Virus record (IMG/VR): IMGVR_UViG_3300033146_001127 | Span: 6,040 to 70,039 of that record | Strand: one strand, 5' to 3' | Length of the DNA: 64,000 bases | DNA from: a virus | Program-made: the position numbers and the translations under genes | The notes under the pieces: generated by a model | Told to the model about the DNA's origin: nothing | The model's input: the letters and a program-made list of their open reading frames with translations, nothing else | Databases searched by the model: none | In this document: positions 11,011 through 63,836 of the stretch, one piece after another | Position numbering within the stretch: the stretch's first letter is position 1 | Layout: each line of letters begins with the position of its first letter

Positions 11011-11022
11011 ATATTTTCCTTT

Positions 11023-11187: not shown

Positions 11188-11291
11188 TTAAGCCTCCATT
11201 AGAATTATATTTACATTAAATATTACCATAGTAAAAAATATCTGTCAACAAGTTTACACAAAAATATAAATAATAGAAAGGGAGAAATACA

Positions 11292-11659: not shown

Positions 11660-11883
11660 TCTAATTGTTCTATATTATCTGTTCTTACCTTTTGATATGG
11701 GAATAGTGTTATTATTACCAACATAACTACTGAGGATATAATAAACCCTACGAAACAGTAGTAAGAAAATTCACAAGATGGTAGTATAAACATTATAGAT
11801 AAAAATAAAAATAAAGAATAAGTTGAGACGACTACCAATCTTGGGACCTCTTTGAATTTCATTTCCCATAGATACTTTTTCAT
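11656..11883 (-). CDS. small membrane protein
   Basis: Two hydrophobic helices. Confidence 0.55.
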   Translation of the reverse strand: MKKYLWEMKFKEVPRLVVVSTYSLFLFLSIMFILPSCEFSYYCFVGFIISSVVMLVIITLFPYQKVRTDNIEQLD

Positions 11884-12011
11884 TTTTTGCCTTCGTTTTC
11901 ATTTGATTTGACTTATTATTATTTATATTTTAATGTAAAGTTTACAAGTATTTTACATAACAAATAAAATTTATTAATTATATTAAAACATTACAATTTT
12001 AGTAATTTACA

Positions 12012-12230
12012 CTATAATATAACATCACCATTAACTTTTTTGATAATATCCTTTACACTTTCACATACTTCTATTTCTTGTCCTGAAATTGAAGTTATTT
12101 TTGTACTATTGTTGTATTCCACCATACTTTCAATTGTAGCTGGATTAAAATGAAAAGTTTTTTTGGTTGCCCCACCAGAACCACCATATTTATGAGGTGG
12201 TTTATAAAATGTTAATTGAATTAATTTCAT
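12012..12230 (-). CDS. FlbD/SwrD-like protein
   Basis: LIQLT...FHFNPATIESM...TKITSISGQEIEVCESVKDIIKKV matches the FlbD family pattern; GGAGG before MKLIQ. Confidence 0.6.
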   Translation of the reverse strand: MKLIQLTFYKPPHKYGGSGGATKKTFHFNPATIESMVEYNNSTKITSISGQEIEVCESVKDIIKKVNGDVIL

Positions 12231-12298
12231 TAACTCCTCCAAATAAAAAAATGGACACAGTTTCCTATGTCCATTTTATAAAGAAAAATTGAATAATT

Positions 12299-47585: not shown

Positions 47586-49936
47586 ATGGCAAACATAATT
47601 AAAATTAAAAGATCACAAGTTACAGCTACACCAGCGTCTTTGGCAGAAGGTGAATTAGCTTATTCAGAACAGTCTGATACTTTATTTATAGGTACTTCTG
47701 GGAATAATGTAACTGCTATTGCTGGTCAGGCAGCAATGGGGAACGATTTTGCTAAAATAACCGTTTCTGGTCAATCTGACATTGTTGCTGATCAATCAGG
47801 AGATTCATTTGCTTTTGCTAATGGAACAGGAATCGCTGTTACAACTGATGCTTCAACTGATACCGTAACAATTACAAACACTGCTCCAAATGTAACAACA
47901 GATTTATCTTTAGGTACACAAACTTCAACCACATTGGATATTAATTCCAGTGACGGTGCTAATGTTACAATCCCTGCCGCAACAACAAATGAGGCTGGTT
48001 TGTTAACAACAACTCAATTTGACAAATTAGCTTATATCACAGTAACACAATCAGTAAATCTTGATACTATTGCTGACAATGAACACTTGGCATTAACGAT
48101 TAATTCAACAAATGCTAATGGTTTGTCTATTGATGGTTCTGCTCAAGAGTTATCAATGGCTGTGGCTGATTCTACAACAACAGGTGCTTTAAGTGCCACA
48201 GATTGGAATACATTCAATAATAAATCAGATACAGTTGGTACTGTAACATCTATTACTTCTGGTAATGGTATGAATTTTTCCACTATCACTGATACAGGTT
48301 CTATTGATCTTGGTGTGCCATCAACACTTGATGATACAACAACAAATAGTGTAACAGCAACAAGTCACACTCACGCAATTACAGGTTTTGTTCCAAGTTC
48401 ATATCTTGACACTGATCCACTTCTTGCAGCTGATTCAGATACTAAAGTTGCTACACAGAAAGCTACAAAAGCATATGTAGATTCTAAAACTGGAACTGGT
48501 TCTGGATTACAACAAGAAATTGATAACATTGAAACTGGCGCTGGGTTAAATTCAGATGGTACATATACTGCTGATACTGGTGCTGATTATATTTCAGGTG
48601 CAACTAGTCTTGCTAATGCAGATAGTTTATTGGATGACCAAATTAAAACAAATGCTGATGATATTTTAACTAAGTTTAATAAAGCTGGTGATACAATGTC
48701 TGGTAACATTGTTATGGGTGGAAACTCTATTACTGGTTTGGCTGATCCATCAAATACAGGAGATGCAACCAATAAAGGTTATGTTGATGCTTTAGTTGCA
48801 GGTCTTTCTTGGAAGAATTCAGTAAAGGCAGGAACAACATCGAATATTGATCTTTCTACAGCTGGCACATTAACAGTTGATGGTATTTCAACTTCTGCTG
48901 GTGATCGTATCCTTGTAATGAATCAAACCAATGCAGCTCAAAATGGTATATATATTGTTGCTTCTGGTGCTTGGACACGAGCAACTGATTTTGATTCATT
49001 AACACCAATTGATGAAATTAATGGTGCTGCTGTTTATGTTGAACAAGGTTCTACTCTGTTACTTCACAAGTATCTACTTTAGATACAGATGATATTAATT
49101 TTACTCAATTTAATGGTGCTTCCGCTATTACTGCTGGTATTGGTTTAGGTAAAACTGGTAATACATTATATGTAAATCTTGGTGCTGGTATTGTTGAATT
49201 ACCTACTGATGAAGTTGGTGTAGATGTATATCCAGGTGGTGGTTTGATTACTACAGGTGACGGAACAACATCTTCAACAGCAACAGGTGCACAATTAGCA
49301 ATTGACCTTGATGGTTCGTCATTATCATTAGGTGCTAATGGTATTCGTATTTCTGCTGCTGTTTTGGCGGACATTGATACTAAAGTAGAAGGTCCTACAT
49401 CTGCCACTGATGATAATGTTGTTTTCTTTGATGGAACAACTGGTAAATTAGTTAAAGATAGTGGTTTGACATTATCTGGATCTAATACTGGTGATGTAAC
49501 ACTTGAAAATACACATTATTTAACTATTTCTGGACAAGAAATTACCGCAAATACAGTAGGTGCTGCTTATGGTGGTACAGGGTTAACTTCATATACTGTT
49601 GGTGATATTATTTTTGCTAGTGGTACAACTACATTATCTCAATTAAGTGCTGTTGCTACTGGAAATGTATTAATTTCTGGTGGTGTTGGAACAGCTCCAT
49701 CTTGGGGTAAGGTTGACTTGACAAATGCTGTTTCTGGTACATTACCAGTTGCTAATGGTGGTACAGGTGCAACAACTTTTACTTCTAATGGTATTGTATA
49801 TGGTAATGGTTCTTCATCGTTACAAGTAACATCCGCTGGATCATGGGATAATACTAACAGTGTTGGTCAAATACTTTCTGTTAACTCAAGTAATGTACCA
49901 ACATGGACAAATACACTTGATGGTGGAACATTCTAA
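47586..49936 (+). CDS. long tail/whisker fibre protein, frame broken at about 49055
   Basis: IKIKRS...LAEGELAY N-terminal domain; Thr/Gly/Ser-rich; continues in another frame from 49058 (VTSQVSTLDTDDINFTQFNG) to LDGGTF. Confidence 0.75.
48942..49055 (+). repeat. 114-bp exact direct repeat, copy 1
   Basis: Identical to 51727-51840 (encodes NGIYIVASGAWTRATDFDSLTPIDEINGAAVYVEQGST). Confidence 0.92.
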
Positions 49937-49952
49937 ATAAAATCTAATATTA

Positions 49953-49981
49953 AAAAAGACCCCCTAATAATAGGGGGTCTT
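49953..49981 (+). terminator. GC hairpin, possible terminator or mRNA stabiliser
   Basis: AAGACCCCCTA-ATAA-TAGGGGGTCTT. Confidence 0.6.
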
Positions 49982-49992
49982 GGAGTGATTAA

Positions 49993-50778
49993 ATGATAAA
50001 CATTCTTAATAAAAGATCGAATGTTCAAGGCACCAAACCAACCATTGCCAATCTTGATTTTGGTGAGATTGGTATTAATACCTATGATGGTAAGATATTT
50101 ATCAAGAAGGATGATGGAACACAAAAGATAGTAGAAATTAATGCTATCAATGATTGGATATTAAAATCATCTAATTATACTGTTGAAAATAATGACAGGA
50201 TAATGGCAGATACATCCTCATCATCTTTCACTTTAACTTTACCTTCATCGGTTTCTATTGGACATGAGATAACAATAGTTGACTATAATGGAACATGGTC
50301 AACATATAATTTAATAATTGATGGAAATGGTCATAATATATTAGGTTCTTCCTCTGATTTGATTTGTGATGTTGATAAGACAAAGATATCTTTGATATAT
50401 ACAAATCCCTCAGATGGGTGGAGAGTATTTGTTTCCACAAGTAATGAAAATAATCCAACTAGTGATTGGCAAATTAAAACATCTAATTACACTGCTTCGG
50501 CTAATGATAAAATAATGGCTGATACATCTTCATCAATTCTCACTATAACATTACCTTTAGATCCAGAAGTTGGTTTTACTGTTATGTTAAGTGATTATAG
50601 TGGAACATGGTTTACAAATAATTTAACAGTTAATGGTAATGGTGAAAATATAGATGGTAGTAGTTCAAATAAATCATATGATATAGATGATGCAAAAGTT
50701 GAATTAATATATAAAGATTCAACAACAGGTTGGAAATCATATATTGAAGCTGATGTTATTGATGCTGGATATTTTTAA
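49993..50778 (+). CDS. tail fibre protein with two gp34-like repeats
   Basis: NKRS...LDFGEIGINTYDGKIF; two NYT..NDxIMADTSS..TLP repeats; ends IDAGYF. Confidence 0.8.
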   Translation: MINILNKRSNVQGTKPTIANLDFGEIGINTYDGKIFIKKDDGTQKIVEINAINDWILKSSNYTVENNDRIMADTSSSSFTLTLPSSVSIGHEITIVDYNGTWSTYNLIIDGNGHNILGSSSDLICDVDKTKISLIYTNPSDGWRVFVSTSNENNPTSDWQIKTSNYTASANDKIMADTSSSILTITLPLDPEVGFTVMLSDYSGTWFTNNLTVNGNGENIDGSSSNKSYDIDDAKVELIYKDSTTGWKSYIEADVIDAGYF

Positions 50779-50793
50779 TTAAGGGGAATATAA

Positions 50794-51249
50794 ATGAGTA
50801 AATTAAGTAATTACATATCACATTCAAATGGTAATGCTAATACTCTTGGTGGGCATAGTGTTGATTATTTTGCATCACAAGGAACTACATATACCAAAGT
50901 TGAGATAGATAGTAAAATATCAAATCTTATTGATGGTGCACCAGAATTATTAGATACATTAAATGAAATATCAGCAGCAATAGATGATGATGCAAATTTT
51001 GCTACAACTATATCAAATCGAATTGATACAAAATTGGATTCATCTACATATACTGCTAATGATATATTAACCAAAATAAAAACTGTAGATGGTTCTGGTT
51101 CTGGATTAGATGCTGATTTATTAGATGGATATAATAGTGACTATTTCTTATCAACAACAGGAAAAGCTGCCGATTCTGATAAACTTGATGGACATGATTC
51201 CACATATTTTATGGAAGTTGGTGGAGATATTGATGGTGGTTCATATTAA
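50794..51249 (+). CDS. tail fibre protein
   Basis: GAPELLDTLNEISAAIDDDANFATT and GSGSGLDADLLDG motifs; ends IDGGSY. Confidence 0.8.
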   Translation: MSKLSNYISHSNGNANTLGGHSVDYFASQGTTYTKVEIDSKISNLIDGAPELLDTLNEISAAIDDDANFATTISNRIDTKLDSSTYTANDILTKIKTVDGSGSGLDADLLDGYNSDYFLSTTGKAADSDKLDGHDSTYFMEVGGDIDGGSY

Positions 51250-51297
51250 TAAATATAAATAAATAAACTCGTCTATATAGACAAAAGGAGAAGCCAT

Positions 51298-53470
51298 ATG
51301 GCAAATAGTGTAAAATTAAAAAGATCTTCTGTTGCAGGTAAAATACCAACAACAGCTGATTTGGATTTGGGTGAATTAGCAATTAACACCCATGATGGTA
51401 AGATTTTTATTAAAAAAGATGATGGTTCTGGTACAACTGCCATAATAACTGCTGGACAAGAAAGTATGCCATTAGATGGTGGATCTATGCAGGGTGATTT
51501 GGACATGAATAGTCATAAGGTTGTTGGTCTGGCTGATCCAACTTCAGATGGAGATGCTACACCAAAATCTTATGTTGATTCTTTAGTTGCTGGATTGAGA
51601 TGGAAAAATCCAGTAAAATCTGCAAGTACATCTAATTTAGATCTTAATGGAACAGAAACATTAGATGGTATTTCTTGTGGAGTTGGTGATCGGGTTTTGG
51701 TGATGAGTCAGACTAATGCTGCTGATAATGGTATATATATTGTTGCTTCTGGTGCTTGGACACGAGCAACTGATTTTGATTCATTAACACCAATTGATGA
51801 AATTAATGGTGCTGCTGTTTATGTTGAACAAGGTTCTACTATTAGGCTCCGATAATATTGATTTTGCTCAATTTAATGGAACATCCGATACTCAAGCTGG
51901 AAATGGATTAAATAAAGTTGGAAATACTTTATCTGTTGATCCTGATGGTTCGACATTAACAGTTGCAGCAGCAGGAGTTAAAATTTCTGATACTGTAATG
52001 AATACAATTAATGATAAGTTAAGTGTATCAACAGGTGGTACTCTTTCTGGTGATATATCAATATCTAAGGCTAATCCTTGGTTAACATTAGATTCTCTTA
52101 CATCTGGAGGAACAGGAACAGATCAAGGTGCTGGTATTTCAATTGGTGAAGCTGGTAAAAAAGGTGCTTCTGCATTACATTTAACTTATACTGGTGATGG
52201 ACATGGACATATTGGTATGGGTACTGTTGATGCAACAAGCGGTTTACCTCAATATGAAGCGATGACTTTAAATTATACAGATAATACAGTAAGCTTTTTA
52301 GGCGCTGTAAGTATGTCATCAAATTTATATGTTACTAATTATGTTCAAGGTAAAGTATTATACTCAACAGTTGCAACTGGAACAGCTCCACTCCATGTTG
52401 ATTCTACAACAGTTGTTTCTAACCTTAATGCAGATTTGCTTGATGGACATCATTCTAGTTATTTTTTAACGACAACTGGTAAAGCCGCTGATTCTTCAAA
52501 ATTAGAAGGACATGGTTTATTTACTGCTAATGTTGGTAGTGTAAGTATCCCAACTATTGGAGCTTCAAATGGTGTAATGGAAATAGGTAGATATATTGAT
52601 TTTCATACATCATCATCAACTACTGATTATGATATAAGGTTAAACTGTTCTGGTGCTGATACTTTACAGGTAGATGGTGGTGGCATTACAATTGCTTCTG
52701 GAACATTAGCAATTAATTCTGGTCCTTTGAATGTTAATTCTGGCAAGGTATTGATTGCTAAAAATATCGGAACATCCTCTACCTATAGTAATGGACAATT
52801 GGAATTGAGATGTACTGATGATGGTGATGTTTCTATGGGTTTCCATCGTTCAGGTGCAACTGCTTGCCAATTAAGACATGAAGGAAATGGTTTAATACTT
52901 TCAGGTACTTCTGAAACTTCAGCAGCTAATTTTAAGGTTACAGGTGGAATCACTCATGGTAGCCACCAAACACCATTGACAAATAATAATCTTAATCTTG
53001 GTTCATCTTCATTGAAATATGCAAATGTATATGCAACTACTTTTCAAGGTCGTGCTACTTCAGCTAATTATGCTGACCTTGCTGAGAAATATTCATTTGA
53101 AGATGATGTTGTATTTGATGAAGGAAGAGTTGTATTGATTTCTGATAATAACAATGTTGATTGTAAATCATCTGATGATATTGCATCGGATTCTGTTTTA
53201 GGTGTAATGTCTTTGAATCCAGCATTTATGATGAATAATGAACTTGAAGATGGTTACTATGTTGCATTAAAAGGACGTGTTCCTTGTTATGTTCAAGGTC
53301 CTGTTAGAAAAGGAGAACCATTAGTTTCTTATTTTAATGGTACAGCAATAGGGGTTAATAATAATTTACTTCAAAGTGTTGATCTCATAAAACCATCTAT
53401 TATATTTGGTAAAACATTAGAGAATATTGACGATGATGGTTTACATTTAATAGAAATTGTAGTATTATAA
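51298..53470 (+). CDS. distal tail fibre with C-terminal peptidase-G2-type chaperone, frame broken at about 51840
   Basis: VKLKRS...LDLGELAINTHDGKIF N-terminus; LNADLLDG; GVMEIGRYIDFH; TSANYADLAEKY...VALKGRVP. Confidence 0.8.
51727..51840 (+). repeat. 114-bp exact direct repeat, copy 2
   Basis: Identical to 48942-49055. Confidence 0.92.
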
Positions 53471-53499: not shown

Positions 53500-54612
53500 G
53501 TGAATACATTAATAACTGAATTTGTAGTAACTGAACAATGTAATCTTGCATGTGATTATTGTTATATGAAAAATAATAATCATTATATGAGTATAGATAA
53601 GGTAAAATTGTATATTGAGAATGTCCGTAAATTAATGGATATTTACGGATGTTCTCAATATCATATATCATATTTTGGTGGTGAACCATTATTAAATTGG
53701 GAACTTATTCAACAAGCCATTCCTCTTTTCAAAGAAGATCCTAGATGTGAATCACAAGTGATAATTAGTAATGGATTGTTATTAACACAGGAGATTATTG
53801 ATTATATTAAATCATATAATGTAGGTTTTTCATGGTCATTTGATGGGATGTGGCAAGATATGAATCGTCCACATATAACATTTAGAGAAACTTTATCTGA
53901 GTATAAAGAGAAGTTGGATTTAATAAAACAAGTAAGTTTATCAAGTAAGGTTATGGTGTCACCAAATACTATCTATACTCTTACCGAAAATCTTGAATTT
54001 TTTGTTGATGAGTGTCAGATATACAATCCTGATTTTAGTCTTGTTAGAGATGATATTTGGTCGTCTGATGACATAAAAACATTTAAGGTGGAAAGTAGAA
54101 GACTTGCTGATAGGGTAATTAAATATTATCTTGATGGTATTAATGTATCTGTTGGTTTGTATAATTTGGCTATGATGGATATGTATATGGGTAATAAGTA
54201 TGGTAAAAGACCTTTTGGCTGTTTTGCTGGTTGTCATGGTGTTGGATATTTTCCTAATGGTGATTGGTATCCTTGTGCTAGATTTGGTGCATCAAAAGAA
54301 TATTTGTTAATGGATTCAAATGGTAATGTTGACATAGAAAATATTAATAAATTAAATCAACCTAATATAACCAATCCCCAGACATATGAAGAATGTCAAG
54401 ATTGTAAATTATATAATTATTGTAATGCAGGTTGTACATATTCACAATTAAAAATTAATGGGGATGGTCAATTGTCAGCCAGTCCTGTACCATCAGTATG
54501 TGAATTATTTAAGATTGTATATGATGATACATTATATATAAATGACAAATTAAAAGATGTTTCTATTTATCAGGAATATCTTAATACAATAATAAAATCA
54601 ATAGGAGATTAA
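53500..54612 (+). CDS. radical SAM/SPASM peptide-maturase-like enzyme
   Basis: CNLACDYC, YFGGEP, SNG, SFDG; SPASM CFAG...YPC...CQDC...CNAGC...C. Confidence 0.93.
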   Translation: MNTLITEFVVTEQCNLACDYCYMKNNNHYMSIDKVKLYIENVRKLMDIYGCSQYHISYFGGEPLLNWELIQQAIPLFKEDPRCESQVIISNGLLLTQEIIDYIKSYNVGFSWSFDGMWQDMNRPHITFRETLSEYKEKLDLIKQVSLSSKVMVSPNTIYTLTENLEFFVDECQIYNPDFSLVRDDIWSSDDIKTFKVESRRLADRVIKYYLDGINVSVGLYNLAMMDMYMGNKYGKRPFGCFAGCHGVGYFPNGDWYPCARFGASKEYLLMDSNGNVDIENINKLNQPNITNPQTYEECQDCKLYNYCNAGCTYSQLKINGDGQLSASPVPSVCELFKIVYDDTLYINDKLKDVSIYQEYLNTIIKSIGD

Positions 54613-54614
54613 AT

Positions 54615-54917
54615 ATGGCACAATATGGAAATAAGTTAGAAGTTATAAGAAGATTGTTGGAAGTTGTTAAGTATATTGAGGATAGTCAAAATTCACCTGA
54701 TTTACAGGCATACAAAACAATGATTATGAAAATGATTTCAACTATGATTAATACTACAATTACAGTTAAGGAAAAAAATATTGTAGATGAACAGGTTGTT
54801 GAGGATGTAAAAGATTTTTGTGGTAATTGTACAGATCAATCTTGTTCAACTGTAACACCACAATATAATATTCAAGATACTATTGAAAAAATTAAAACAG
54901 AATTGGGATCAGTTTAG
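54615..54917 (+). CDS. small protein with CxxC..C motif between the two SPASM enzymes
   Basis: FCGNCTDQSC; AGGAG RBS. Confidence 0.7.
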   Translation: MAQYGNKLEVIRRLLEVVKYIEDSQNSPDLQAYKTMIMKMISTMINTTITVKEKNIVDEQVVEDVKDFCGNCTDQSCSTVTPQYNIQDTIEKIKTELGSV

Positions 54918-56008
54918 TGAATAACAAGAAATCATTTCATATCGATATTAATTCAACAAAAAATTGTAATCTTAGGTGTACTTATTGTTTTGAAGTTAAA
55001 AATAATGAAATAAAGAATAAGTCATTTGAACATGTGGATTCTTTAATTAGATTTATTAAAGATTTAAGAGAAACAGAATATTATAAATCCAATTATTATG
55101 AAATGGTGGTTAATTTTTGGGGTGGCGAACCTACATTAAATAAACCATTATTCAAAAGAATTATTTCTGAATATATAGAAGATACAGAAATAAGATTTTT
55201 TATGTATTCTAATGGTTATTATGTTGATGATTTTTTTGTGAATATATATAAAAAAATTCAAAAACTTAAAGTTAATGGTCATCCAAAAATTGTTGTTCAA
55301 ATTTCATATGATGGTGTTCCTGTTCATGATTTTGATCGTGTAGATATTAATGGTAATGGTTCTTCTAGTGAAATTAAAAAAACGATACAATCTTTACAAG
55401 ATAATAATATTTTTTATGTTTTGAAAAGTACCATTCAACCTAAAAATTTTAAATATTTATATGAAGCATATTTAGATGTTATAAGTCTTGATGGTAATGG
55501 ATATTTTCCTACTATTGATTTACATGAGGATTTTGATGAGAACGAATATGTTAAATATAATGATGATTTGTTTAATAGTTTATACAAGATTGCTGCATAT
55601 GAAGTTAAAAATAAAAATAATCAATTTAAGTGGTTTAAGAAGAATAGATCTTTGTGTGCCGCTGGTAATGATATGATAGCTATTGATATAAATGGTAACA
55701 TTCAACCTTGTCATGGAGCATTATATACTGATTACAATGATCATTTGATTTCTAATATAAAAGATATTGATGTTATAGAAAAACTTATAAATAGTTCTAT
55801 ATATTATAGTTCATTTTGTTTTAACGAGCCAGAGAAATGTAAACAATGTACTGTTGAGTTTTGTTTGAAGTGTAATGCAGCACATTATAATTTTAGTAAA
55901 AAAGAAAAATATGATGAAAGGTGGATGGATTTTGATAATCAAGACTATCTTTGTCATTATTTCAGAATTATTGATAATGTTTCTCAGGCTGTTAAACAAA
56001 TGAAATAG
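54917..56008 (+). CDS. radical SAM/SPASM peptide-maturase-like enzyme
   Basis: CNLRCTYC, FWGGEP, SNG, QISYDG; SPASM CAAG...QPCH...CKQC...CLKC...C. Confidence 0.93.
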   Translation: MNNKKSFHIDINSTKNCNLRCTYCFEVKNNEIKNKSFEHVDSLIRFIKDLRETEYYKSNYYEMVVNFWGGEPTLNKPLFKRIISEYIEDTEIRFFMYSNGYYVDDFFVNIYKKIQKLKVNGHPKIVVQISYDGVPVHDFDRVDINGNGSSSEIKKTIQSLQDNNIFYVLKSTIQPKNFKYLYEAYLDVISLDGNGYFPTIDLHEDFDENEYVKYNDDLFNSLYKIAAYEVKNKNNQFKWFKKNRSLCAAGNDMIAIDINGNIQPCHGALYTDYNDHLISNIKDIDVIEKLINSSIYYSSFCFNEPEKCKQCTVEFCLKCNAAHYNFSKKEKYDERWMDFDNQDYLCHYFRIIDNVSQAVKQMK

Positions 56009-56018
56009 GAGGTAATAA

Positions 56019-56630
56019 ATGGCTTGTAATGGTCATACAAATTCTTGTTCTTCTCATTCTGGTTATGTTCCAGCAACTACTATAACTTTTACCAATGAAG
56101 ATGTTGTTGCTGGGGAAGAAATTGATGCTTTGGATGAAATTCATGAACTTCTTGATAAATTAAATGATGAGTCAGATAGAAGATCAGTATTAAATGAGAG
56201 TACACCAATATCATTAACTTTAACAGATCCACTTGCATCCTCACAAATAAGACAAATAAGAGATTTGTATTTAGATATATTAAATACAACAGCATCATCT
56301 CCTATCACTGATACTGAGATAGCTGTTGGTCAACCACTAAGAGCTGACACAATAGAAACTATGAAAGATGGAATTATATCAGATTCATCTACATGTGTTT
56401 GTGATTGTAATTATGCTTGTACATGTGACTGTAACTACTGTACATGTGACTGTAACTACTGTACATGTGACTGTAACTACTGTACATGTGACTGTAACTA
56501 CTGTACATGTAACTGTAACTACTGTACATGTGACTGTAACTATTCATGTACATGTAACTGTAACTATTCATGTACATGTAACTGTAACTATTCTGATATC
56601 AGATTAAAAACTGAGATAATTTATTTTTAA
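56019..56630 (+). CDS. Cys-rich repeat protein (9 x CxCxCNY), candidate radical SAM substrate, ending in the S74 cleavage motif SDIRLK
   Basis: AGGAGG RBS; N-terminal CNGH..CSSH; 27 Cys in 66 residues. Confidence 0.85.
   Translation: MACNGHTNSCSSHSGYVPATTITFTNEDVVAGEEIDALDEIHELLDKLNDESDRRSVLNESTPISLTLTDPLASSQIRQIRDLYLDILNTTASSPITDTEIAVGQPLRADTIETMKDGIISDSSTCVCDCNYACTCDCNYCTCDCNYCTCDCNYCTCDCNYCTCNCNYCTCDCNYSCTCNCNYSCTCNCNYSDIRLKTEIIYF
56394..56591 (+). repeat. coding tandem repeat, 21/24-bp unit TGTACATGT(G/A)ACTGTAACTA(C/T), 9 units
   Basis: Read directly; units in frame with ORF 56019-56630. Confidence 0.95.
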
Positions 56631-56641
56631 AGGATTGTAAA

Positions 56642-56923
56642 ATGTTTGATAAATTGTGGACTAAAATTAAACCTGCTGTTTTTAAGTACAAAAAAAATAA
56701 GATTGGTATTGATGATGATAAGATCTATATTGGTGTAATGGCACAGGATATCATTGATGGATTATCGGAAGAAGGATATAATATTAAAGATTTTTCTATT
56801 ATAAATATGGAAGATACTGGATATTATTCTGTTGATTATATTCAATTAATACCTATTTTAATAAGTAGAATAAAAAAATTAGAAAAAGAAATTGAAATTA
56901 TAAAGAAAGGGGATATTTTATGA
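56642..56923 (+). CDS. stand-alone C-terminal part of a peptidase S74 intramolecular chaperone
   Basis: IKPAVFKYK...IGVMAQDI...YSVDYIQLIPILISRIKKLEKEIE; lacks SDxRLK; AGGA RBS. Confidence 0.8.
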   Translation: MFDKLWTKIKPAVFKYKKNKIGIDDDKIYIGVMAQDIIDGLSEEGYNIKDFSIINMEDTGYYSVDYIQLIPILISRIKKLEKEIEIIKKGDIL

Positions 56924-57519
56924 TAAATTTATTAAAGATTTATTGGAAAGGTGATGTAGGTAAAATAACAGGATATAGACAGATTGATGATAATGAAATG
57001 TATGATGAAACTAGATTTAAATCTGTTTCTGATGATGTTTATACTTATGTCTCCGAAAATTATGAAAAAGGGGAATTGACAATACCTGATACAGTTATTA
57101 ATGTAACATTAAGTGATATAACATTTACTGAGTTTGATGATGTAGTTGCGATGAAAAATAATGCATTGAATGTATTTATTAATAATGAACTTAGGGATGA
57201 TAATACCAGTTTGGATTTTTTCTTAATTTCAGTTAAATTTATTATTTTAAATAATCAATTAGCAGAAAAAGGTTTTATTTTTACCCCAACAAACAAAGAA
57301 GATGTATATCTTGATGTGTTGAATAGTGGTGATGAACAATCAATAGAGATATTAGAAGATTATATTGAAGTATTGGATGCAGTTACATCTTATAGTTCAA
57401 AAGTTAATAATTATATTTCAATGAAGAAGGCGATGACCGATTTGACTGATGTACAGACAATACTTGATACATATACTTCTTATACTGGTAGAAACCTTAT
57501 TGATGATATGAATGCTTAA
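56920..57519 (+). CDS. hypothetical protein
   Basis: 199 aa, coupled to the upstream gene. Confidence 0.7.
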   Translation: MINLLKIYWKGDVGKITGYRQIDDNEMYDETRFKSVSDDVYTYVSENYEKGELTIPDTVINVTLSDITFTEFDDVVAMKNNALNVFINNELRDDNTSLDFFLISVKFIILNNQLAEKGFIFTPTNKEDVYLDVLNSGDEQSIEILEDYIEVLDAVTSYSSKVNNYISMKKAMTDLTDVQTILDTYTSYTGRNLIDDMNA

Positions 57520-58418
57520 TGAAATCATTTGATGGTGACAATGCTGTAATATTTGGACTTGTTATTGATCATAAATGTAATATAATTCCTATGGGTTCGT
57601 TATATGATTCAATTGAATATTTTTTGAATATATATGATGTTAATAATGATATCAAATTGTTATTTCATTTAATTCCTAATGATGGATTTATTGAAAGAAA
57701 TAAAACATACAAAAGATTTGAAAAAGAAGTAACTAATATTTTAAAAAAAATCAGAGATATAATTGAAATTCGGTATTATACCTCTGATTTTTCTTTTTTT
57801 GATAACATACATATTGTTGACATAAAACAATTATTTTTGAATAATAAATTTAATAAAATATTAACAATTGATATGTCAACTCCTCAAACATTTAAATCAT
57901 TTATTGCCAGAGCAAATGAAATTATTATCATACCAGAATTAACTAAATATCAATATTTTTATAAATCTAATAGAAATAAAGTTACATATTATACCGAAAT
58001 GCCATTTTGTTATTGTGATGTTCCTTATAGAATTAAATTTGATTTTGAGAGGACAAAATCAATAGATAATTTTGATAATAAATTATATGTTAATTATCCT
58101 AAATTGAATCCTTATGATGATATTGATGTTAAAAATAAAATAGAAAAAATAAATAAAGATGTTTTGATAAAAGAAGATAATTTTTTTTATGATTTGCATA
58201 AACATTTTAATGAATATATGTATATAAAATCATTAATGTGGTTTGACCCTCATCCAAAATTATTTCATGAGTGTAAATATTATAATAAAGAATATCATTA
58301 TTTTAATAGGTATAATATAAAAGATGGTTCATATTATAGATATAATTGGAGTTTGACTGATAAATTGAAAGATTTACAGTTGAATAAAGATGATATTATA
58401 ATAAGGATGATGAGTTAA
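57519..58418 (+). CDS. hypothetical protein, possibly glycosyltransferase-like
   Basis: C-terminal FDPHPKLFHECKYY loosely resembles the GT-B nucleotide-sugar motif. Confidence 0.4.
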   Translation: MKSFDGDNAVIFGLVIDHKCNIIPMGSLYDSIEYFLNIYDVNNDIKLLFHLIPNDGFIERNKTYKRFEKEVTNILKKIRDIIEIRYYTSDFSFFDNIHIVDIKQLFLNNKFNKILTIDMSTPQTFKSFIARANEIIIIPELTKYQYFYKSNRNKVTYYTEMPFCYCDVPYRIKFDFERTKSIDNFDNKLYVNYPKLNPYDDIDVKNKIEKINKDVLIKEDNFFYDLHKHFNEYMYIKSLMWFDPHPKLFHECKYYNKEYHYFNRYNIKDGSYYRYNWSLTDKLKDLQLNKDDIIIRMMS

Positions 58419-59236
58419 TGGAAATAGATAACACCAGAATAATATTTTCTCCAGAAAGGGGGTATACAACTTCTATATATAATTATTTTAAAAAAAGTAA
58501 TTATTATTATGTTTCTAAAGAAAAGGAATTTTTTAATGGTGAATATAGGGCAACAGAAGTGAATAATGATATGTATCTTAATTTATATGATAAAAATAAA
58601 ATATATATAGATTGTTCTTTTGTATATTTTGCTGATTATATAATAAATAAATTAGATGTTAAATTTACTAAAGATGTAATTTTATATAATTTAAGAGATT
58701 TAAATAGTTTTGTTAATTCTATGTATATAACTTTATTTTTTAATTTTCTTTTTACTGTTGATTTTTCTTATAAATTTATTATGGATACAATAATGTATAT
58801 TTATAATATAAAAAAATTTTTAATTAGAGTTAAGTTATATAAAAAATATAATGGTGAGATACATTTTATAAATGATTATAATTTTAATATCAATAGTATT
58901 ATATGTTATTATTGTTTGCCAAAGATTAATAGTACATTTTCAGTTGATAGTAATAGTAGGTATGAATTAATTGATAATATAAAGAGGAGAATTGGTACTG
59001 AATCTATTGATTATTATAATAATAAAATTGATATAATATATAACATGGAAAAATATATAAATGAATACAGGAATAAAATTGATATATTAAATGAAAATAA
59101 TATACGAATATTAAAAAAACAAAATTTTATATTAGGTTATTTTGACGAAGAATTATATAGGAGTAATTATAAAAAAAATATAATAAATAAAGAATATGTT
59201 GAAAAAATTGTCAATAGATTACCTACATTCATTTGA
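58418..59236 (+). CDS. sulfotransferase-like protein (diverged)
   Basis: SPERGYTTSIYNYF (5'-PSB-like), KEKEFF, DCSFVY, YNLRD. Confidence 0.5.
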   Translation: MEIDNTRIIFSPERGYTTSIYNYFKKSNYYYVSKEKEFFNGEYRATEVNNDMYLNLYDKNKIYIDCSFVYFADYIINKLDVKFTKDVILYNLRDLNSFVNSMYITLFFNFLFTVDFSYKFIMDTIMYIYNIKKFLIRVKLYKKYNGEIHFINDYNFNINSIICYYCLPKINSTFSVDSNSRYELIDNIKRRIGTESIDYYNNKIDIIYNMEKYINEYRNKIDILNENNIRILKKQNFILGYFDEELYRSNYKKNIINKEYVEKIVNRLPTFI

Positions 59237-60125
59237 TTGTTGTAACCATAAACTTATTTCAAAGGATGGAAGACAGCAACATTATATAGATTATTCTCAA
59301 CATTTCATTTTAAAATATCCAGAAATTAATAATTATTTACTTGTAGATAAACTTGGTTCTTACAATGAAATGTATTTCAAAGCAAAATCATTTTTTACTG
59401 ATAATGAATTAAGAAATTATACTTTTAATTATAAATTTAAAACATTAAATAATTTTTTTATAAATAGTGATATTTTATTATGTGATTTTGCCATGTTATC
59501 TCTTCTTATACAAAATAATCTTCCAATTAATAAATATAAAAAAATATTTATATTTGATTGTCTTGAATTGACGGTTTACTTTAGAAATGTTAAGATACCT
59601 AATGGTATAAGTAGAAATATATTGAATCGTAAAATAATAAAAGACTTCCTTGATATGAATACTAATAAATTGGTCTTTTTGGTTACACCATATAATTTCA
59701 ATGATGTTAATGGTTTTAATTATATAGAATACTACAAAAAAATAAATTTTAATTTGTTTAAGGATGAATTGTGTAAAAAACAATATAATGATGAACTTAT
59801 ATATTACTATTCATGTAATAACGAAGAGTTTGATGATCATTTTTTGATCAAATTATATTCTAAATATGATAATTTAGTAATAACAAAAAAGTATAGTGAT
59901 TTATTTTATTATAAAAATGTTTTATATACAGCAAAACCGTATGTTGGGTTCATAGAACAATTTGGTAGAATGATATTTGAGATGAGATATTTTGGTTGTA
60001 ATGTTATATTAGATCAGTCTTATCAGGTTGAGGATATAACAGGATTGGATTACTACTTGGATTATGGTGGTAGTCTTGATATATTAGATGATAATATAAT
60101 GGAAATAATAAATGAAAATATTTAG
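59196..60125 (+). CDS. hypothetical protein, possibly glycosyltransferase-like
   Basis: EQFGRMIFEMRYFG resembles the GT-B E-x-F-G-x4-E motif. Confidence 0.45.
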   Translation: MLKKLSIDYLHSFDCCNHKLISKDGRQQHYIDYSQHFILKYPEINNYLLVDKLGSYNEMYFKAKSFFTDNELRNYTFNYKFKTLNNFFINSDILLCDFAMLSLLIQNNLPINKYKKIFIFDCLELTVYFRNVKIPNGISRNILNRKIIKDFLDMNTNKLVFLVTPYNFNDVNGFNYIEYYKKINFNLFKDELCKKQYNDELIYYYSCNNEEFDDHFLIKLYSKYDNLVITKKYSDLFYYKNVLYTAKPYVGFIEQFGRMIFEMRYFGCNVILDQSYQVEDITGLDYYLDYGGSLDILDDNIMEIINENI

Positions 60126-61116
60126 TAATGATGAGTGGACTAATTTAAAAGAAGTTGTTGTGGGTGACACTTATTCAAATATGAATATAAATGTTGATGT
60201 TGCTTTTAAACTTTTTTATAAAGATTTGTATGATTGGGGTTGGTTGGATGAATCAAATATTAAAATTGAAATAAAATCAAAATATATTTATGAATTAAAT
60301 GAAGATATTGATTTATTTGTTAATACATTGATTGATAATGGTATAGTTGTATATAGACCATCTAAGATGAATAAAATTACAAAAATAGTAACCCCAAATT
60401 GGTCTAGTGAGACATTACCACCATTAAATGTTAGAGATCAAACAATCATTTTAGGTAATTCTATTATAGAAACCCCCCCAATGTTAAGAAATAGATATTA
60501 TGAAAATGATTTTTTAAAATATATTTTTAATGAAGCATTTGAAGATGGAGCTAGATGGTTAAATTTACCAAAATCTACATTATCAGATTCAGCGTTAAAT
60601 AATAATAATCAAATGATGATTGATGGTGCCCAATTTGTTAGATTCGGAAAAGATATAATAGTTAATGTTTCTAATAATTCTCATCAATTAGCTGTAGATT
60701 GGTTTATTAGAGAGTTCCCACAATATAATTTTCATGTTATTAGATCTTTAGTTATGAATCATTTGGATAGTTTTATTGTGCCATTATGTGAGGGGGTGTT
60801 GCTTCTTCGTAATAAAGAATTTTTGAAAATTATGCCAGATTTTTTAAAAGATTGGAAGATTATTTATCCACCTAAACCATCTCAAAATCAATTTCCAATA
60901 TATGGAGATAATGATGTTATTTTAACTACACCATATATAGATATAAATGTATTGTCGTTGGATGGGAATAAAATTATTTGTAATTCATTATTTCCAGAAT
61001 TAAATGAACTTTTATATAAAGAAGGTTTTGATCCTATACCAGTCCAACATAGACATAGACGTATTTTTGCTGGTGGATTTCATTGTTTTACGTTAGATTT
61101 GTTGAGGGGAAAATGA
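60112..61116 (+). CDS. amidinotransferase (glycine/inosamine-phosphate family)
   Basis: EWTNLKEVVVG, NVRD, IDGA, HLDS, INVLSLD, GGFHCFTLDL with catalytic Cys. Confidence 0.9.
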   Translation: MKIFSNDEWTNLKEVVVGDTYSNMNINVDVAFKLFYKDLYDWGWLDESNIKIEIKSKYIYELNEDIDLFVNTLIDNGIVVYRPSKMNKITKIVTPNWSSETLPPLNVRDQTIILGNSIIETPPMLRNRYYENDFLKYIFNEAFEDGARWLNLPKSTLSDSALNNNNQMMIDGAQFVRFGKDIIVNVSNNSHQLAVDWFIREFPQYNFHVIRSLVMNHLDSFIVPLCEGVLLLRNKEFLKIMPDFLKDWKIIYPPKPSQNQFPIYGDNDVILTTPYIDINVLSLDGNKIICNSLFPELNELLYKEGFDPIPVQHRHRRIFAGGFHCFTLDLLRGK

Positions 61117-62186
61117 GTACATATGCTATTGGTGATATACATGGTTGTCTACAGACATTTAATAAACTTTTAAATGAAATTGGATATGATAAATATAACG
61201 ATAAACTTATTTTATTAGGTGATTATATTGACAGAGGTGTTGATTCTAAAGGTGTACTAAAAAGAATTATTGAGTTACAAAAAGATGGTAATGTTATTGT
61301 TTTAATGGGCAATCATGAATATGATGCTTTATTGTCTGACACATATATAGAGTTTCATGATTGGATTGATAGTTTGCCATTTATATATGAAGATGATAAA
61401 TTTATATATGTTCATGCTGGGTTAAAACCATCTGTTGATTTATATAAACAATCAAAATATGATTTACTTAATATAAGAGGTGAATTTTTAAGAAATTATA
61501 ATAAATTTAATAAAAGAGTTGTTTTTGGACACACTCCCGTTGTTGTACCAAAAATAATGGATAATGGGATTATCCCAATTGATACTGGATGTGTTTATAC
61601 TCAAAATGGAAAATTAACTGCATTTAATGTTGAAGATGAATATTTTGTTTCTGTTGACAATATTGATGATATTAATCATAAAAAAGAACCATTTAAAAAG
61701 AAACTTATTAGAAATATAATTAATAATAATATAAATAAACAATATTTTGATATATCGGTTGGATGGTGGTTGGATAATGAAGTGATGACCCTTTATCATG
61801 GAACAAGTATTGATAATGTTGATAATATTATTTCAAATGGATTATTAGGTACTAATACTCATTTTATTCATTTAACATTTGATATGAATACCGCTTATGG
61901 GTTTTCTATATTCAAACATGGATATGAAGAATCATTAACTAATTTTCAGTTTAATAATAAAAATCAGCGGTGTTTGATTGAATTAAAATTTAACATTGAT
62001 GATTTTTTGTATAGAATATTGGATATTAATTTTTCATATGGCACTTCGTATAGTAGATTATCTGATCGTAAAGTTTATGATGATTTTATCGGAACTGATA
62101 ATGAATATTATAAGTACACTGAATTTATATTAACTGAATCAATAGAAAAAAAGTATATAACTAATATAATAAGGTGTAATATGTAA
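61113..62186 (+). CDS. PPP-family metallophosphatase fused to an ADP-ribosyltransferase/Tpt1-like domain
   Basis: GDIHG, GDYIDRG, GNHE, HAG, FGHT, IDTG; then LYHGTS..I..NGL...IHLT...E. Confidence 0.8.
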   Translation: MSTYAIGDIHGCLQTFNKLLNEIGYDKYNDKLILLGDYIDRGVDSKGVLKRIIELQKDGNVIVLMGNHEYDALLSDTYIEFHDWIDSLPFIYEDDKFIYVHAGLKPSVDLYKQSKYDLLNIRGEFLRNYNKFNKRVVFGHTPVVVPKIMDNGIIPIDTGCVYTQNGKLTAFNVEDEYFVSVDNIDDINHKKEPFKKKLIRNIINNNINKQYFDISVGWWLDNEVMTLYHGTSIDNVDNIISNGLLGTNTHFIHLTFDMNTAYGFSIFKHGYEESLTNFQFNNKNQRCLIELKFNIDDFLYRILDINFSYGTSYSRLSDRKVYDDFIGTDNEYYKYTEFILTESIEKKYITNIIRCNM

Positions 62187-62989
62187 TGTTAGGTCAAAGA
62201 ATTAAACCTAAATATTTAGATCAATTAAAAGAGTTTTTTGTAACACATTCGTTAGAAGATTTTCAAGTTATATATGACAACGAAAAGTTCTTTGTAGATT
62301 GGTTAAATGTTAGAACATTCAAGTTTACTAATTCAGGAACTTCAGCGTTGTATCTTATTTTACAACATATAAAAATAACAGAAGGATTGGGGTCTGAGTT
62401 AAAGGTTGTTGGTCCCGCATTTAGTCACGTTTCGTGGATCAATGTATGTGAATGGTTGGATATTCAATATGATTTTTTAGATGTAAAAAAAGAAACATTA
62501 AGTTTGAACCCAAATGAATTACAAAAAATGATAGATTTGGGGGATATTCCTAGTGTTGTTGTAATGATAGATATGGGTGGATATATTGGAGAAGACACAT
62601 TAAAAGTTAGAGAGATTTGTGATTTACATAATATTATTTTAATTGAAGATGCGGCACATGCTTTTGGACAATCTTATAACGGATATAAAGCAGGAACGAT
62701 TGGAGATTATTCATTTTTTTCATTTTCTAATCCAAAATTATTAACTTCTGGTGAAGGAGGGGCAATTGTCTCAAAACATCAGGAGTTAAATATAAAATTT
62801 GAAGAATTAATATATCAAGGTGGTTGGTATAGGTACAATAAAGAAAAACGAACACAAGGTTTGAATTTTATAATGTCAAATTGGATGACCGAATTATTAA
62901 AATACCAACTACAAGATATAGAAGAAATTCAAAAAGACTGGTTAGAAAAATTTAATAGTTTAAATAACAAAGACAATAAAATAAATTAG
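62186..62989 (+). CDS. DegT/DnrJ/EryC1/StrS PLP aminotransferase, possibly C-terminally truncated
   Basis: NSGTSAL, IEDAAHAFG, FSFSNPKLLTSGEGG. Confidence 0.88.
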   Translation: MLGQRIKPKYLDQLKEFFVTHSLEDFQVIYDNEKFFVDWLNVRTFKFTNSGTSALYLILQHIKITEGLGSELKVVGPAFSHVSWINVCEWLDIQYDFLDVKKETLSLNPNELQKMIDLGDIPSVVVMIDMGGYIGEDTLKVREICDLHNIILIEDAAHAFGQSYNGYKAGTIGDYSFFSFSNPKLLTSGEGGAIVSKHQELNIKFEELIYQGGWYRYNKEKRTQGLNFIMSNWMTELLKYQLQDIEEIQKDWLEKFNSLNNKDNKIN

Positions 62990-63071
62990 ATAACGTAATG
63001 TATCAAAGATATAAAAATATGGGTTATGAAACTCATATTAATTCACAATATTTACATGAACATTTAGTATA

Positions 63072-63836
63072 TTGGAAAATATAATGTGGTTTGAATTTAT
63101 TTTAACAACTAAATGTAATTGGAATTGTCCTTATTGTACATTCGATAGGATTTGTGATTATTATTTTAATATTGATATATTAAATAAACATGAATATATT
63201 TTTGATATAATGAATGATATTAAAAATAAAATTATAATCATAGAAGGTGGTGAAATTGGTTTTATAACGTCAAATGATTTACTTGAAAATTTGTTAAAAC
63301 GATTTGATAATAAGGTTATTGTCAATACTAATGGTTTATTTTTTAATGTTGATAGAAGTATGTTATACAAATATATTGATAAAGTATTTTATCATGTAGC
63401 ACCAGATGCAAAAAAATTGTTTAAAATTGAACCCCTTGATGTTCCTTTTAATGTAGTGTATGGTATAGTTGATGATAATATTGAAAATATTAATAGATTT
63501 ATAGAATATAATTCACATATAAATTTTGGTTATGTTGAAATTGAATATTCAAAGTATGATGATTATTTATATAATACTTGTTTTAATGAAATAAAAAAGT
63601 GTAATACATTGAATCCTTTTGTTAGTATTGATTTGTCTAGGGAGGTGTTATGTATGTGTACGTCTCGTGGTTGTCATGTCACTATTCCTTTGACCGAATC
63701 AAATTTAAAAAATGTTCTGAGTGGATATAATAATTTTGGATTTAATGATATGTGTTACACTTGTTATAGATTAAGTAAATGTTTTGATATTAGTAATGTT
63801 ATTAAACAAAAAATCTATATGAAAGATTTGTTATGA
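63072..63836 (+). CDS. radical SAM protein
   Basis: CNWNCPYC, EGGE, TNG; C-terminal Cys cluster; start uncertain. Confidence 0.85.
   Translation: MENIMWFEFILTTKCNWNCPYCTFDRICDYYFNIDILNKHEYIFDIMNDIKNKIIIIEGGEIGFITSNDLLENLLKRFDNKVIVNTNGLFFNVDRSMLYKYIDKVFYHVAPDAKKLFKIEPLDVPFNVVYGIVDDNIENINRFIEYNSHINFGYVEIEYSKYDDYLYNTCFNEIKKCNTLNPFVSIDLSREVLCMCTSRGCHVTIPLTESNLKNVLSGYNNFGFNDMCYTCYRLSKCFDISNVIKQKIYMKDLL

Follow-up and report, generated by a model that had tools for sequence, protein, structure and literature searches.

A phage gene cassette joining radical SAM/SPASM enzymes, a cysteine-heptad repeat protein and a split S74 chaperone behind tail-fibre genes

Why would a phage keep two radical SAM (S-adenosylmethionine) enzymes and a cysteine-rich repeat protein directly behind its tail-fibre genes? 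The question is raised by a locus in the record IMGVR_UViG_3300033146_001127, of which we analysed a window of 64,000 nucleotides (bases 6040-70039 of the 70,039-base uncultured virus record; CheckV completeness 27). In this window, head and connector genes are followed by several fibre genes (47586-53470) and these by the cassette, which stands immediately after the fibre genes at the end of the structural module. Its six genes, all on the same strand and nearly gapless, encode enzyme 1, a protein of 100 amino acids (aa), enzyme 2, a 203-aa repeat protein, a 93-aa open reading frame (ORF) and a 199-aa partner (Table 1). Judged from its sequences, the cassette is a conserved, phage-restricted and unnamed system. 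The reading that we prefer, to which we give about an even chance, is that radical SAM chemistry would cross-link the heptads of a trimeric, fibre-associated protein by thioethers and that this protein would be folded with the help of a split S74 chaperone. An earlier reading of the region, made from the letters without database searches and here called the original prediction, had proposed several of these elements.

Table 1. Coordinates in the window of the cassette features and of the adjoining fibre gene
Feature	Position	Strand	Remarks
Tail-fibre gene, next upstream of the cassette	51298..53470	+	two ORFs in the window: 51298-51855, 51794-53470
Radical SAM/SPASM enzyme 1, 370 aa	53500..54612	+	CX3CX2C at residues 14-21
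Small protein, 100 aa, between the enzymes	54615..54917	+	predicted helical ends, central C-x2-C-x5-C
Radical SAM/SPASM enzyme 2, 363 aa	54917..56008	+	CX3CX2C at residues 17-24
Repeat protein, 203 aa	56019..56630	+	two CxxH, helical domain (~10-130), nine heptads, 12-aa S74 stub, stop
Nine C-(T/V)-C-(D/N)-C-N-Y heptads, proposed modification site	56394..56591	+	residues 126-191, 27 Cys
12-residue stub SDIRLKTEIIYF	56592..56627	+	first strand of S74 domain; Ser and Lys five residues on, S-D-x-R-x-K
93-aa ORF, predicted remainder of S74 chaperone domain	56642..56923	+	Pfam PF13884
199-aa partner	56920..57519	+	N-terminal beta domain and helical bundle, conserved, no known family

As the original prediction had read it, the 203-aa protein has two N-terminal CxxH motifs (C3..H6 and C10..H13) and nine CxCxCNY heptads that hold 27 of its 29 Cys, with SDIRLK directly after the last heptad. 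A degenerate DNA pattern for CxC(D/N)CNY was found nine times on the forward and not once on the reverse strand (its backwards control gave 0/0), and Tandem Repeats Finder reported a period of 21, 8.0 copies and 96% matches at 56418-56590; it should be noted that the heptad copy number in the window depends on short-read assembly. The sequence AGGAGG is located 6 bases 5' of the ATG of this gene. In the AlphaFold2 model of the monomer, residues 10-130 form three helices (predicted local distance difference test, pLDDT, 73-95) and residues 132-203 have a pLDDT of about 40. No Pfam or NCBIfam family could be assigned to the protein, and its sole PHROG match was phrog_26958 ('unknown function', E 2e-21), the family of gp140 of phage CP220. 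A profile search of the PDB gave only a Myc chain (E 0.0031), Foldseek found no match to the fold in PDB or BFVD at E <= 0.001, and the best Z in the wide VIA search was 6.9 (root-mean-square deviation (rmsd) 3.6, 112 aligned), which is not above the level common for helical models.

The repeat protein belongs to a large family. A word-indexed search found 643 homologs of 111-356 aa at E <= 0.001, every one named 'hypothetical protein', and beyond these 42 longer homologs; a full HMMER scan, run with a profile of 53 sequences, hit 509 representatives of 50%-identity clusters out of 1.84 billion, 257 of them at E <= 1e-10 and 62 at E <= 1e-30. The members share one plan: a CxxH N-terminus (79 of the 120 best homologs) or a start of the G-S-P-C type, a helical domain with conserved E..RR, then the heptads (2 to 28 per member, median 6) and a C-terminal tail. 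In a logo of 1220 heptads from 168 proteins, for which the search expression preset positions 1, 3 and 5 as well as the aromatic class at position 7, position 2 was T in 73%, position 4 was N, D or Q in 55, 33 and 8%, position 6 was N in 89% and D in 5%, and position 7 was Y in 88%. Each heptad therefore contains two overlapping C-x-x-(D/N/Q) motifs, with N/D/Q at position 4 in 96% and N/D at position 6 in 94%. C-X-X-Q/D is the motif cited for the radical SAM thioethers of the archaeal protein CrpA (PMC13692751). The heptads fit the pattern of ranthionine acceptors, that is, a Cys with a nearby acceptor, in repeats, beside enzyme genes.

What kind of enzymes are encoded next to these repeats? 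The two radical SAM/SPASM enzymes that the original prediction placed within 53500-57519 could be recognised as such, each with CX3CX2C and seven conserved SPASM Cys. Pfam Radical_SAM (PF04055, cutoff 29.5 bits) matched enzyme 1 with E 7.7e-13 and 49.4 bits and enzyme 2 with E 6.8e-12 and 46.3 bits. The SPASM domain of enzyme 1 was found by the NCBIfam model TIGR04085 (38.8 bits vs a cutoff of 27); enzyme 2 scored 17.7 bits against Pfam SPASM (PF13186), under the cutoff of 21.5, and its seven C-terminal Cys are nevertheless invariant. Across 8 of 8 orthologs, the invariant Cys were C14, C18, C21, C241, C259, C299, C302, C308, C312 and C334 in enzyme 1, and C17, C21, C24, C247, C265, C308, C311, C316, C319 and C346 in enzyme 2. 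On these grounds we place both in the radical SAM superfamily and the SPASM subfamily, with cluster binding predicted.

Classification by hidden Markov models agreed with the original proposal that the enzymes are SPASM maturases. The NCBIfam thioether family PapB (NF047865, cutoff 340 bits) was the top family for both, among 70 and 46 families matched, with 139.9 bits (E 1.1e-40) for enzyme 1 and 97.3 bits (E 9.9e-28) for enzyme 2. It was followed by the nif11-peptide, SCIFF, QhpD, CcpM, CXXX-repeat and other peptide maturase families, all far under their curated cutoffs. Membership of either enzyme in PapB itself was rejected, as the scores fall far short of the 340-bit cutoff. Since both come nearest to PapB-type enzymes and yet score far under the cutoffs, we read them as a separate family of SPASM peptide or protein maturases, with thioether-forming enzymes as their nearest kin. 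Among solved structures, 5wgg ('Radical SAM domain protein', E 7.3e-16) was closest to enzyme 1; we take it to be the SCIFF maturase CteB. Both enzymes start at the cluster motif, and their alignments to families bearing a RiPP recognition element (RRE; RiPP, a peptide made by ribosomes and modified after translation) begin at profile positions 80-103; the phage enzymes therefore seem to be without an N-terminal recognition domain.

Do the enzymes and the repeats occur together elsewhere? Co-occurrence was scored throughout within the flanking sequence available at each locus. The search with the repeat protein gave 18 distinct viral loci, 11 of which were mapped, and in 9 of these 11 there were one to five CX3CX2C ORFs on the same strand within a few kb. 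In the other direction, we took orthologs of at least 150 bits, counting distinct ones: 34 of 42 for enzyme 1 and 34 of 46 for enzyme 2 had a same-strand ORF with at least two heptads in the locus, usually 1.5-4 kb downstream of the enzyme gene. The Cys-repeat protein is thus a neighbour of the enzymes in both search directions, as the original prediction had it. The eight enzyme-1 misses were L030, one locus with a 550-base flank, three Campylobacter phage copies, L153, L045 and L163. Nine of the 12 enzyme-2 misses had a variant Cys protein adjacent, with C-x-C-N-x-x hexads or similar units, and the repeats of these variants mostly end in ...CNY-SD.RLK.

Between enzymes 1 and 2, most relatives encode a further radical SAM enzyme of a third and shorter class, so that the two-enzyme system originally described is what the window contains and not what most of its relatives have. 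Of the heptad proteins, with three Cys per unit, 46 distinct ones had enough flank upstream, and 36 of these have all three classes nearby; none of the 12 hexad-type proteins, with two Cys per unit, does. The repeat type appears to track the enzyme set, which fits one enzyme per reacting cysteine and is treated here as a lead.

The distribution of the system is narrow. Among 50,697 isolated phage records, heptad DNA was found by blastn in only 17, all from Campylobacter phages, and enzyme-1 orthologs in only 15, again all Campylobacter phages, 14 of which were within these 17; among isolated phages, only Campylobacter Firehammerviruses carry both heptads and enzyme. A tblastn search of the isolated phages with the repeat protein gave no match, probably owing to the low-complexity filter, as blastn did find the Campylobacter phages. 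A search of 185,579 species of bacteria and archaea, one genome each, turned up only two related loci, both of which lie on contigs of metagenome-assembled genomes; the system therefore appears to be essentially phage-only. Five loci from the enzyme-2 search (L065, L070, L073, L076 and L083) encode 300-780-aa phage proteins full of C-x-C-(N/D)-x-x-type units, which adjoin more distant SPASM enzymes. This suggests that a wider superfamily of Cys-repeat proteins may be paired with radical SAM genes in phages.

How does the repeat protein end? The original prediction had joined the repeats to an autocleavage chaperone, and this stands in so far as the repeats abut an S74 cleavage site, whereas the chaperone itself proved to be split into a stub and a separate ORF. 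The 203-aa ORF ends in SDIRLKTEIIYF and a stop (ending at 56630), 12 residues past the catalytic Ser. The 93-aa ORF follows 11 bases 3' of the stop in a different frame, with its own ATG at 56642 and AAGGA 8 bases upstream. It matched Pfam Peptidase_S74 (PF13884) with 22.2 bits (cutoff 22) over profile positions 20-57 of 58, and its PHROG matches were all to tail fibre, tail spike or baseplate families (fibre/spike E 1.3e-6 to 7.5e-4). The 199-aa protein at 56920-57519, which the region of the original prediction also takes in, is not an S74 protein and represents a separate conserved family.

The split arrangement is common among relatives. Of the 120 best homologs, 78 end in the same 12-13-aa tail, 5 have a full fused S74 domain and 37 have neither; among 52 distinct heptad proteins in the loci, S74 is fused in 8, and at least 18 are stub-ended (13 counted automatically, plus five whose fourth position is Q or M). 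All five fused homologs tested exceed the Pfam S74 cutoff (24.2-40.9 bits), with profile position 1 aligned to the Ser, and in three separate S74 ORFs of relatives the match begins at profile position 16-18. In a second tally, of 18 distinct stub-ended proteins, 11 had a separate short S74-like ORF in the locus, and adjacent pairs of stub and S74 ORF showed relative frames 0, 1 and 2 with gaps of 0-27 bases. Tandem paralogs of the repeat protein, with four heptads each, occur in L142 (four, 9699-12263) and L140 (three, 9501-11558). One L140 paralog has a fused S74 domain; the others in both loci are stub-ended, and a single short S74-like ORF and a partner gene follow the array, so that in L142 four tandem stub-ended paralogs precede a single S74-like ORF.

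Could the stop after the stub be a homopolymer or assembly error, the protein really carrying a fused S74 domain? Five T in a row (56624-56628) stand immediately 5' of the TAA, the downstream ORF can be read in the -1 frame from 56615 on, and one fibre gene of the same record lacks 41 letters at 51840, an apparent assembly defect (see below). However, the stop position is shared by the 78 homologs, which come from many sources, and the separate S74-like ORFs of 11 of the 18 stub-ended proteins, the three relative frames, the single S74-like ORF behind the four L142 paralogs and the ATG and AAGGA of the 93-aa ORF all argue for two genes. In addition, no indel is listed at 56620-56630 for run X1, which is possibly the source sample and so not independent. 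We consider such an artefact very improbable. A programmed frameshift or a sequencing error at the stub was likewise rejected on the conserved stop and the varying relative frames. Because the stop is conserved in 78 of the 120 best homologs, the split of S74 is real and not an error, with S-D-x-R-x-K on the client and the chaperone body as a free protein; the 93-aa ORF probably acts in trans.

Structure prediction was consistent with such an arrangement. Three copies of residues 118-203 of the repeat protein, modelled with three copies of the 93-aa ORF, gave 0.78 in each of three runs, against 0.45 for the best of 3 controls; 58 of 80 complexes with solved structures reach the mark used, as against 2 of 110 mismatched pairs, although the 3+3 copies and custom alignments depart from the calibration of the tool. 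The runs share at least 76% of contacts, the pLDDT of the binding partner is at least 83, and the interface is formed by residues 189-203 of the repeat protein. The model supports binding only, with the stub predicted to dock into the three copies of the 93-aa ORF; S74 structures have been solved, and the pass may reflect likeness to them. The cassette resembles Peptidase_S74 of endosialidases and phage fibres (PF13884) in that S-D-x-R-x-K starts directly after a fibre-like part. It differs from the usual Peptidase_S74 in that most members are split, with the 12-aa client stub and a separate ORF, or none in the available flank. We met no mention of a split S74 form in the literature, in which no search aimed at such a split was made.

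Other members of the family vary the same design. In P0134, P0135 and P0142, a Hint (intein-like) domain follows the heptads in place of S74; the Pfam Hint_2 match of P0142 (E 5.7e-6, 27.2 bits) lies just under the cutoff of 28.4. Because two unrelated self-processing modules, S74 and Hint, end the same repeat, the family suggests that a free C-terminus at the last heptad may matter. Heptads also occur within 350-850-aa modular proteins with inserted globular or Gly_rich_2 domains: they close a Gly_rich_2 protein in P0162 (33.7 bits, cutoff 24.3), and P0123 and P0124 have the same architecture with an inserted globular domain of about 230 aa. A second repeat, C-S-C-Q-S-Y-V-A-P-P, was seen in P0135 and P0136.

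How might these parts work together? On the reading that we prefer, the repeat protein would be made as a precursor, and the two SPASM enzymes would recognise its N-terminal helical domain or the heptads themselves; that it is their substrate we infer from genomic evidence, which is strong and of that kind only. The enzymes would take hydrogen from side-chain carbons and join Cys sulfur to them, forming ranthionine-type thioethers. The likeliest rings would link Cys1 with the D/N/Q at position 4, and Cys3 with Asn6, giving two C-x-x-(D/N/Q) rings per heptad, one per enzyme. The cross-linked repeat region would then assemble as a trimer on the S74 chaperone, which would act mostly in trans through docking of the 93-aa ORF onto the 12-aa stub. 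Ser192 is the expected point of autocleavage, after which the mature protein would end at the last heptad. The product would be a rigid, protease- and redox-resistant rod or tip tied to the neighbouring tail fibre, and the 199-aa partner may act in assembly or attachment. A bolder form of this proposal, which we regard as possible but doubtful, would have a wide uncultured group of T4-like phages and the Campylobacter Firehammerviruses employ dedicated radical SAM enzymes to furnish a trimeric fibre tip or needle with a covalent ladder of thioethers, with one ring per C-x-x-(D/N/Q), one enzyme class per reacting Cys, and a split, trans-acting S74 chaperone that would fold the product and might serve several paralogous tips.

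Is such a system already known? The original prediction had regarded the arrangement as undescribed, and no description could be found, a statement that must now be qualified by an archaeal precedent. In the literature other than subscription-only papers, there was no account of the heptad family or of radical-SAM-modified phage structural proteins, and strings of the heptad motif matched 0 papers. Dieter et al. (2026, ACS Bio Med Chem Au; PMC13692751) reported that the SPASM enzyme CrpC of Methanococcus voltae puts ranthionine links, shown by mass spectrometry, on CrpA, a 28.8-kDa Cys-rich repeat protein. CrpC/CrpA is the closest precedent. A SPASM maturase with a Cys-repeat protein is thus already known, and it is the phage fibre setting that is new. 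In both cases, the gene for a SPASM enzyme stands beside that for a Cys-rich repeat protein rather than a short peptide, and the repeat protein has an N-terminal leader-like part, C-terminal repeats and a motif of the C-X-X-Q/D type. However, the archaeal system is cellular and the phage cassette viral; CrpA has ten repeats of 17 residues and the phage protein nine of 7 residues; CrpC has an RRE domain, whereas the phage enzymes begin at the cluster motif; and one enzyme serves CrpA, whereas the phage cassettes have two or three classes. The archaeal system is without the S74 or Hint domain, fibre context and 199-aa partner that the phage system has.

Two further types of enzymes deserve comparison. 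QhpD, a radical SAM/SPASM enzyme that makes Cys-Asp/Glu thioethers in QhpC, a subunit of a larger assembly, is cited together with its substrate in the CrpA paper as the earlier protein example (PMC13692751). Enzyme 1 matches the QhpD family (TIGR03906) with E 3.6e-24 and 85.3 bits, where the cutoff is 453. QhpD relies on an RRE and a leader and makes three links, not a repeat ladder, and its product is a periplasmic enzyme subunit. The PapB/freyrasin (NF047865) and CteB/SCIFF (TIGR03974) families are the best-scoring enzyme families for both phage enzymes. In systems of this type, one enzyme makes many thioethers on a repetitive Cys/Asp motif, with a C-X3-D spacing in PapA, where the phage heptad has C-x-x-(D/N/Q). 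The PapB and SCIFF substrates are short secreted peptides, unlike the 203-aa phage protein.

The cultured relative, gp140 of CP220 (CPT_0180; PHROG 26958), shares the same heptads in six copies, with about 78% DNA identity over the repeat, and has an enzyme-2 ortholog, gp136, 2.2 kb downstream. It differs from the window protein in its length of 534 aa, in its N-terminal 290 residues, in having no S74, and in a long C-terminal part with scattered CxC(D/N) units. In print, CPT_0180 figures only as the carrier of a 21-bp intragenic DNA repeat, to which Timms et al. gave no function (Timms 2010; PMC2853527).

A number of observations weigh against the cross-linking reading. The co-occurrence counts are of distinct sequences and not of phylogenetically independent lineages. 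In L030, the closest relative (78-81% identity), the 5.5 kb after the enzymes hold no heptad ORF; the contig is only 8.6 kb long, with 0.5 kb upstream, and on it a 90-aa ORF comes next after enzyme 1, a small ORF and enzyme 2. In CP220 some 145 kb separate the repeat gene from the enzyme-1 ortholog, gp023, and only the enzyme-2 ortholog is near. CP220 and CPt10 carry 11-12 radical SAM genes (Timms 2010; PMC2853527), and with so many in one phage some adjacency could be incidental. The cross-linking is predicted from genes; the scores are far short of the PapB cutoff, and the reaction could instead yield a cyclophane or another link. No RRE domain was found in the enzymes, and the small ORF and the 199-aa partner match no family in Pfam or NCBIfam. 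The window has only two enzyme classes for three Cys per heptad. AlphaFold2 left the heptads unmodelled, and the trimer is therefore deduced from S74. Finally, the available flanks of L016 and L017, where a heptad ORF comes right after a giant fibre gene, contain no radical SAM gene.

These last two loci would also suit a rod that binds metal or Fe-S clusters, in which the CxCxC units of a trimer face the axis, where they chelate metal ions or clusters or form ladders of disulfides, and the neighbouring radical SAM enzymes act elsewhere, for example, in a sugar or amidino pathway encoded downstream. The repeats hold 27 Cys in 66 residues at i, i+2 and i+4, on one face of a strand, and the S74 context implies a trimer. 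The HxH iron sites in the fibre tips and needles of phages, as in T4 gp37 and P2 gpV, offer a parallel. An amidinotransferase (1bwd, E 3e-36), a DegT aminotransferase and a further radical SAM gene are encoded just downstream, and metal binding was raised by the CrpA authors for their protein too (PMC13692751). However, among divergent phages the orthologs of both enzymes go with the repeat protein (the 34 of 42 and 34 of 46 given above), the enzyme genes sit between the fibre and repeat genes and not in the downstream cluster, and both enzymes are nearest to peptide maturases rather than to sugar or cofactor enzymes. Moreover, N6, Y7 and the D/N/Q at position 4 are conserved as would be expected of reacting residues, whereas chelation needs none of that. 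On balance, we judge a metal-binding rod to be quite unlikely.

Is the repeat protein part of the virion at all? None of the 11 identified bands of the CP220 virion gel is CPT_0180 (Timms 2010; PMC2853527), which likewise counts against a fibre-associated product, and Carvalho et al. reported 38 virion proteins of phage IBB_35 (2012; PMC3322345). The repeat protein could instead be a large RiPP-like precursor or an intracellular effector, which the enzymes would modify and from which S74, Hint or another protease would free a Cys-rich product that acts on the host or competitors or serves Fe-S enzymes. The conserved N-terminal domain with a C-terminal repeat has a leader-plus-core-like layout, tandem paralogs such as those of L142 and L140 are found among RiPP precursors, the SPASM maturase neighbours fit, and CrpA is not known to be structural (PMC13692751). 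Against this, the PHROG matches of the S74 ORF are all structural, heptads lie inside the modular proteins with globular or Gly_rich_2 domains, the cassette closes the structural module behind the fibre genes, and the CP220 homolog of the 199-aa partner stands beside baseplate genes. S74 in phages generally marks fibres and spikes. We hold a product outside the virion to be unlikely.

If the cross-linking reading is right, radical SAM thioether chemistry reaches beyond small secreted peptides and a single archaeal protein, and viruses use it on a fibre-like part as a new class of post-translational modification of the virion. The product would be the first virion component matured by radical SAM enzymes, and RiPP chemistry would enter host recognition. 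It would also offer a reason for the many radical SAM genes of some phages, a question open since the CP220 and CPt10 genomes (2010), and a source of hyper-stable, genetically encoded cross-linked repeat scaffolds. The large and unnamed family has cultured carriers in the Campylobacter Firehammerviruses, so direct tests are feasible, and the split S74, with its 12-aa client tag and free chaperone gene, is of interest for fibre engineering.

The small CxxC protein that the original prediction noticed between the enzymes is the 100-aa ORF with C-x2-C-x5-C. Searches of Pfam, NCBIfam and PHROG with it gave nothing above noise, and jackhmmer found homologs among the loci only in L030 and L031. A small ORF (69-177 aa) follows enzyme 1 in all relatives inspected, some with a CxGH motif, and it could be a second substrate or a recognition helper. 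In L012 (4576-5058), L031 (5809-6165) and L119 (8117-8545), the C-x-G-H motif stands between helical ends and resembles the N-terminus of the repeat protein, where the window's copy has C-x2-C-x5-C. In L030, the 90-aa ORF is followed by T4-like baseplate and tail genes, including 757-aa and 179-aa ORFs that by eye read as sheath and tube, and the sequence upstream of the enzymes encodes a protein with repeats that look FG-GAP-like by eye.

The 199-aa partner had 81 jackhmmer hits among the loci, nearly always just 3' of the repeat or S74 gene, and its homolog in CP220, gp015, adjoins baseplate hub and tail assembly genes. The AlphaFold2 model reached a pLDDT of 94.6 and a predicted template-modelling score (pTM) of 0.72. 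No consistent Pfam family was found among 28 members, and DUF4376, an Atlas lead (0.89, under the bar of 0.9), was rejected as no member matched it. Foldseek gave no match in the PDB, the PDB profile search gave designed proteins only, and the wide VIA search gave only generic helical hairpins (best Z 7.1, rmsd 1.9, 50 aligned).

By its genes, the phage of the window is a T4-like myovirus of a distant kind. PHROG families were matched by its portal (E 3.6e-94), major head protein (E 1.7e-95) and large terminase (E 6.3e-65), and the head protein is about 35% identical to cyanomyovirus head proteins. The gene next upstream of the cassette had been called a distal fibre in the original prediction; the fibre assignment is upheld by a PHROG tail fibre match (phrog_19602, E 4.4e-18) of its second ORF, and the C-terminus resembles the Peptidase_G2 autoproteolytic domain weakly (Pfam 19.1 bits vs a cutoff of 25). 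Fibre ends of this G2-like kind, homologous to that of the window, also stand upstream of the cassette in L012, L014, L016, L017 and L019.

This fibre gene breaks into its two overlapping ORFs right after a conserved motif ending in ...VEQGST. A contig of run X1 has 41 additional letters between 51840 and 51841 of the window, which join the two frames, as 41 = 2 mod 3; the window record probably lacks these bases through an assembly defect or a population variant. A second fibre gene (47586-49936) is broken at the same protein position after ...VEQGST, near 49053: a 498-aa ORF stops at 49082, the -1 frame is open from about 49053 into a 230-aa ORF, and a piece of an X1 contig begins at 49056, at this break. 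Here a conserved N-terminal module of the fibre may meet variable distal parts, at a junction made by recombination or by assembly.

Downstream of the cassette (57519-63836), the first three ORFs have no Pfam family, and among them a 299-aa ORF matches only an unnamed PHROG; a stretch of 19% GC at 58001-60000 falls within this three-ORF region. The amidinotransferase gene (60112-61116) is followed by genes for a Metallophos protein and the DegT-type aminotransferase and by the further radical SAM gene (63072-63836). This cluster of radical SAM and amidinotransferase genes resembles those of CP220 and CPt10 (Timms 2010; PMC2853527) and also the trio reported for cyanophage S-SCSM2R (PMC12801897).

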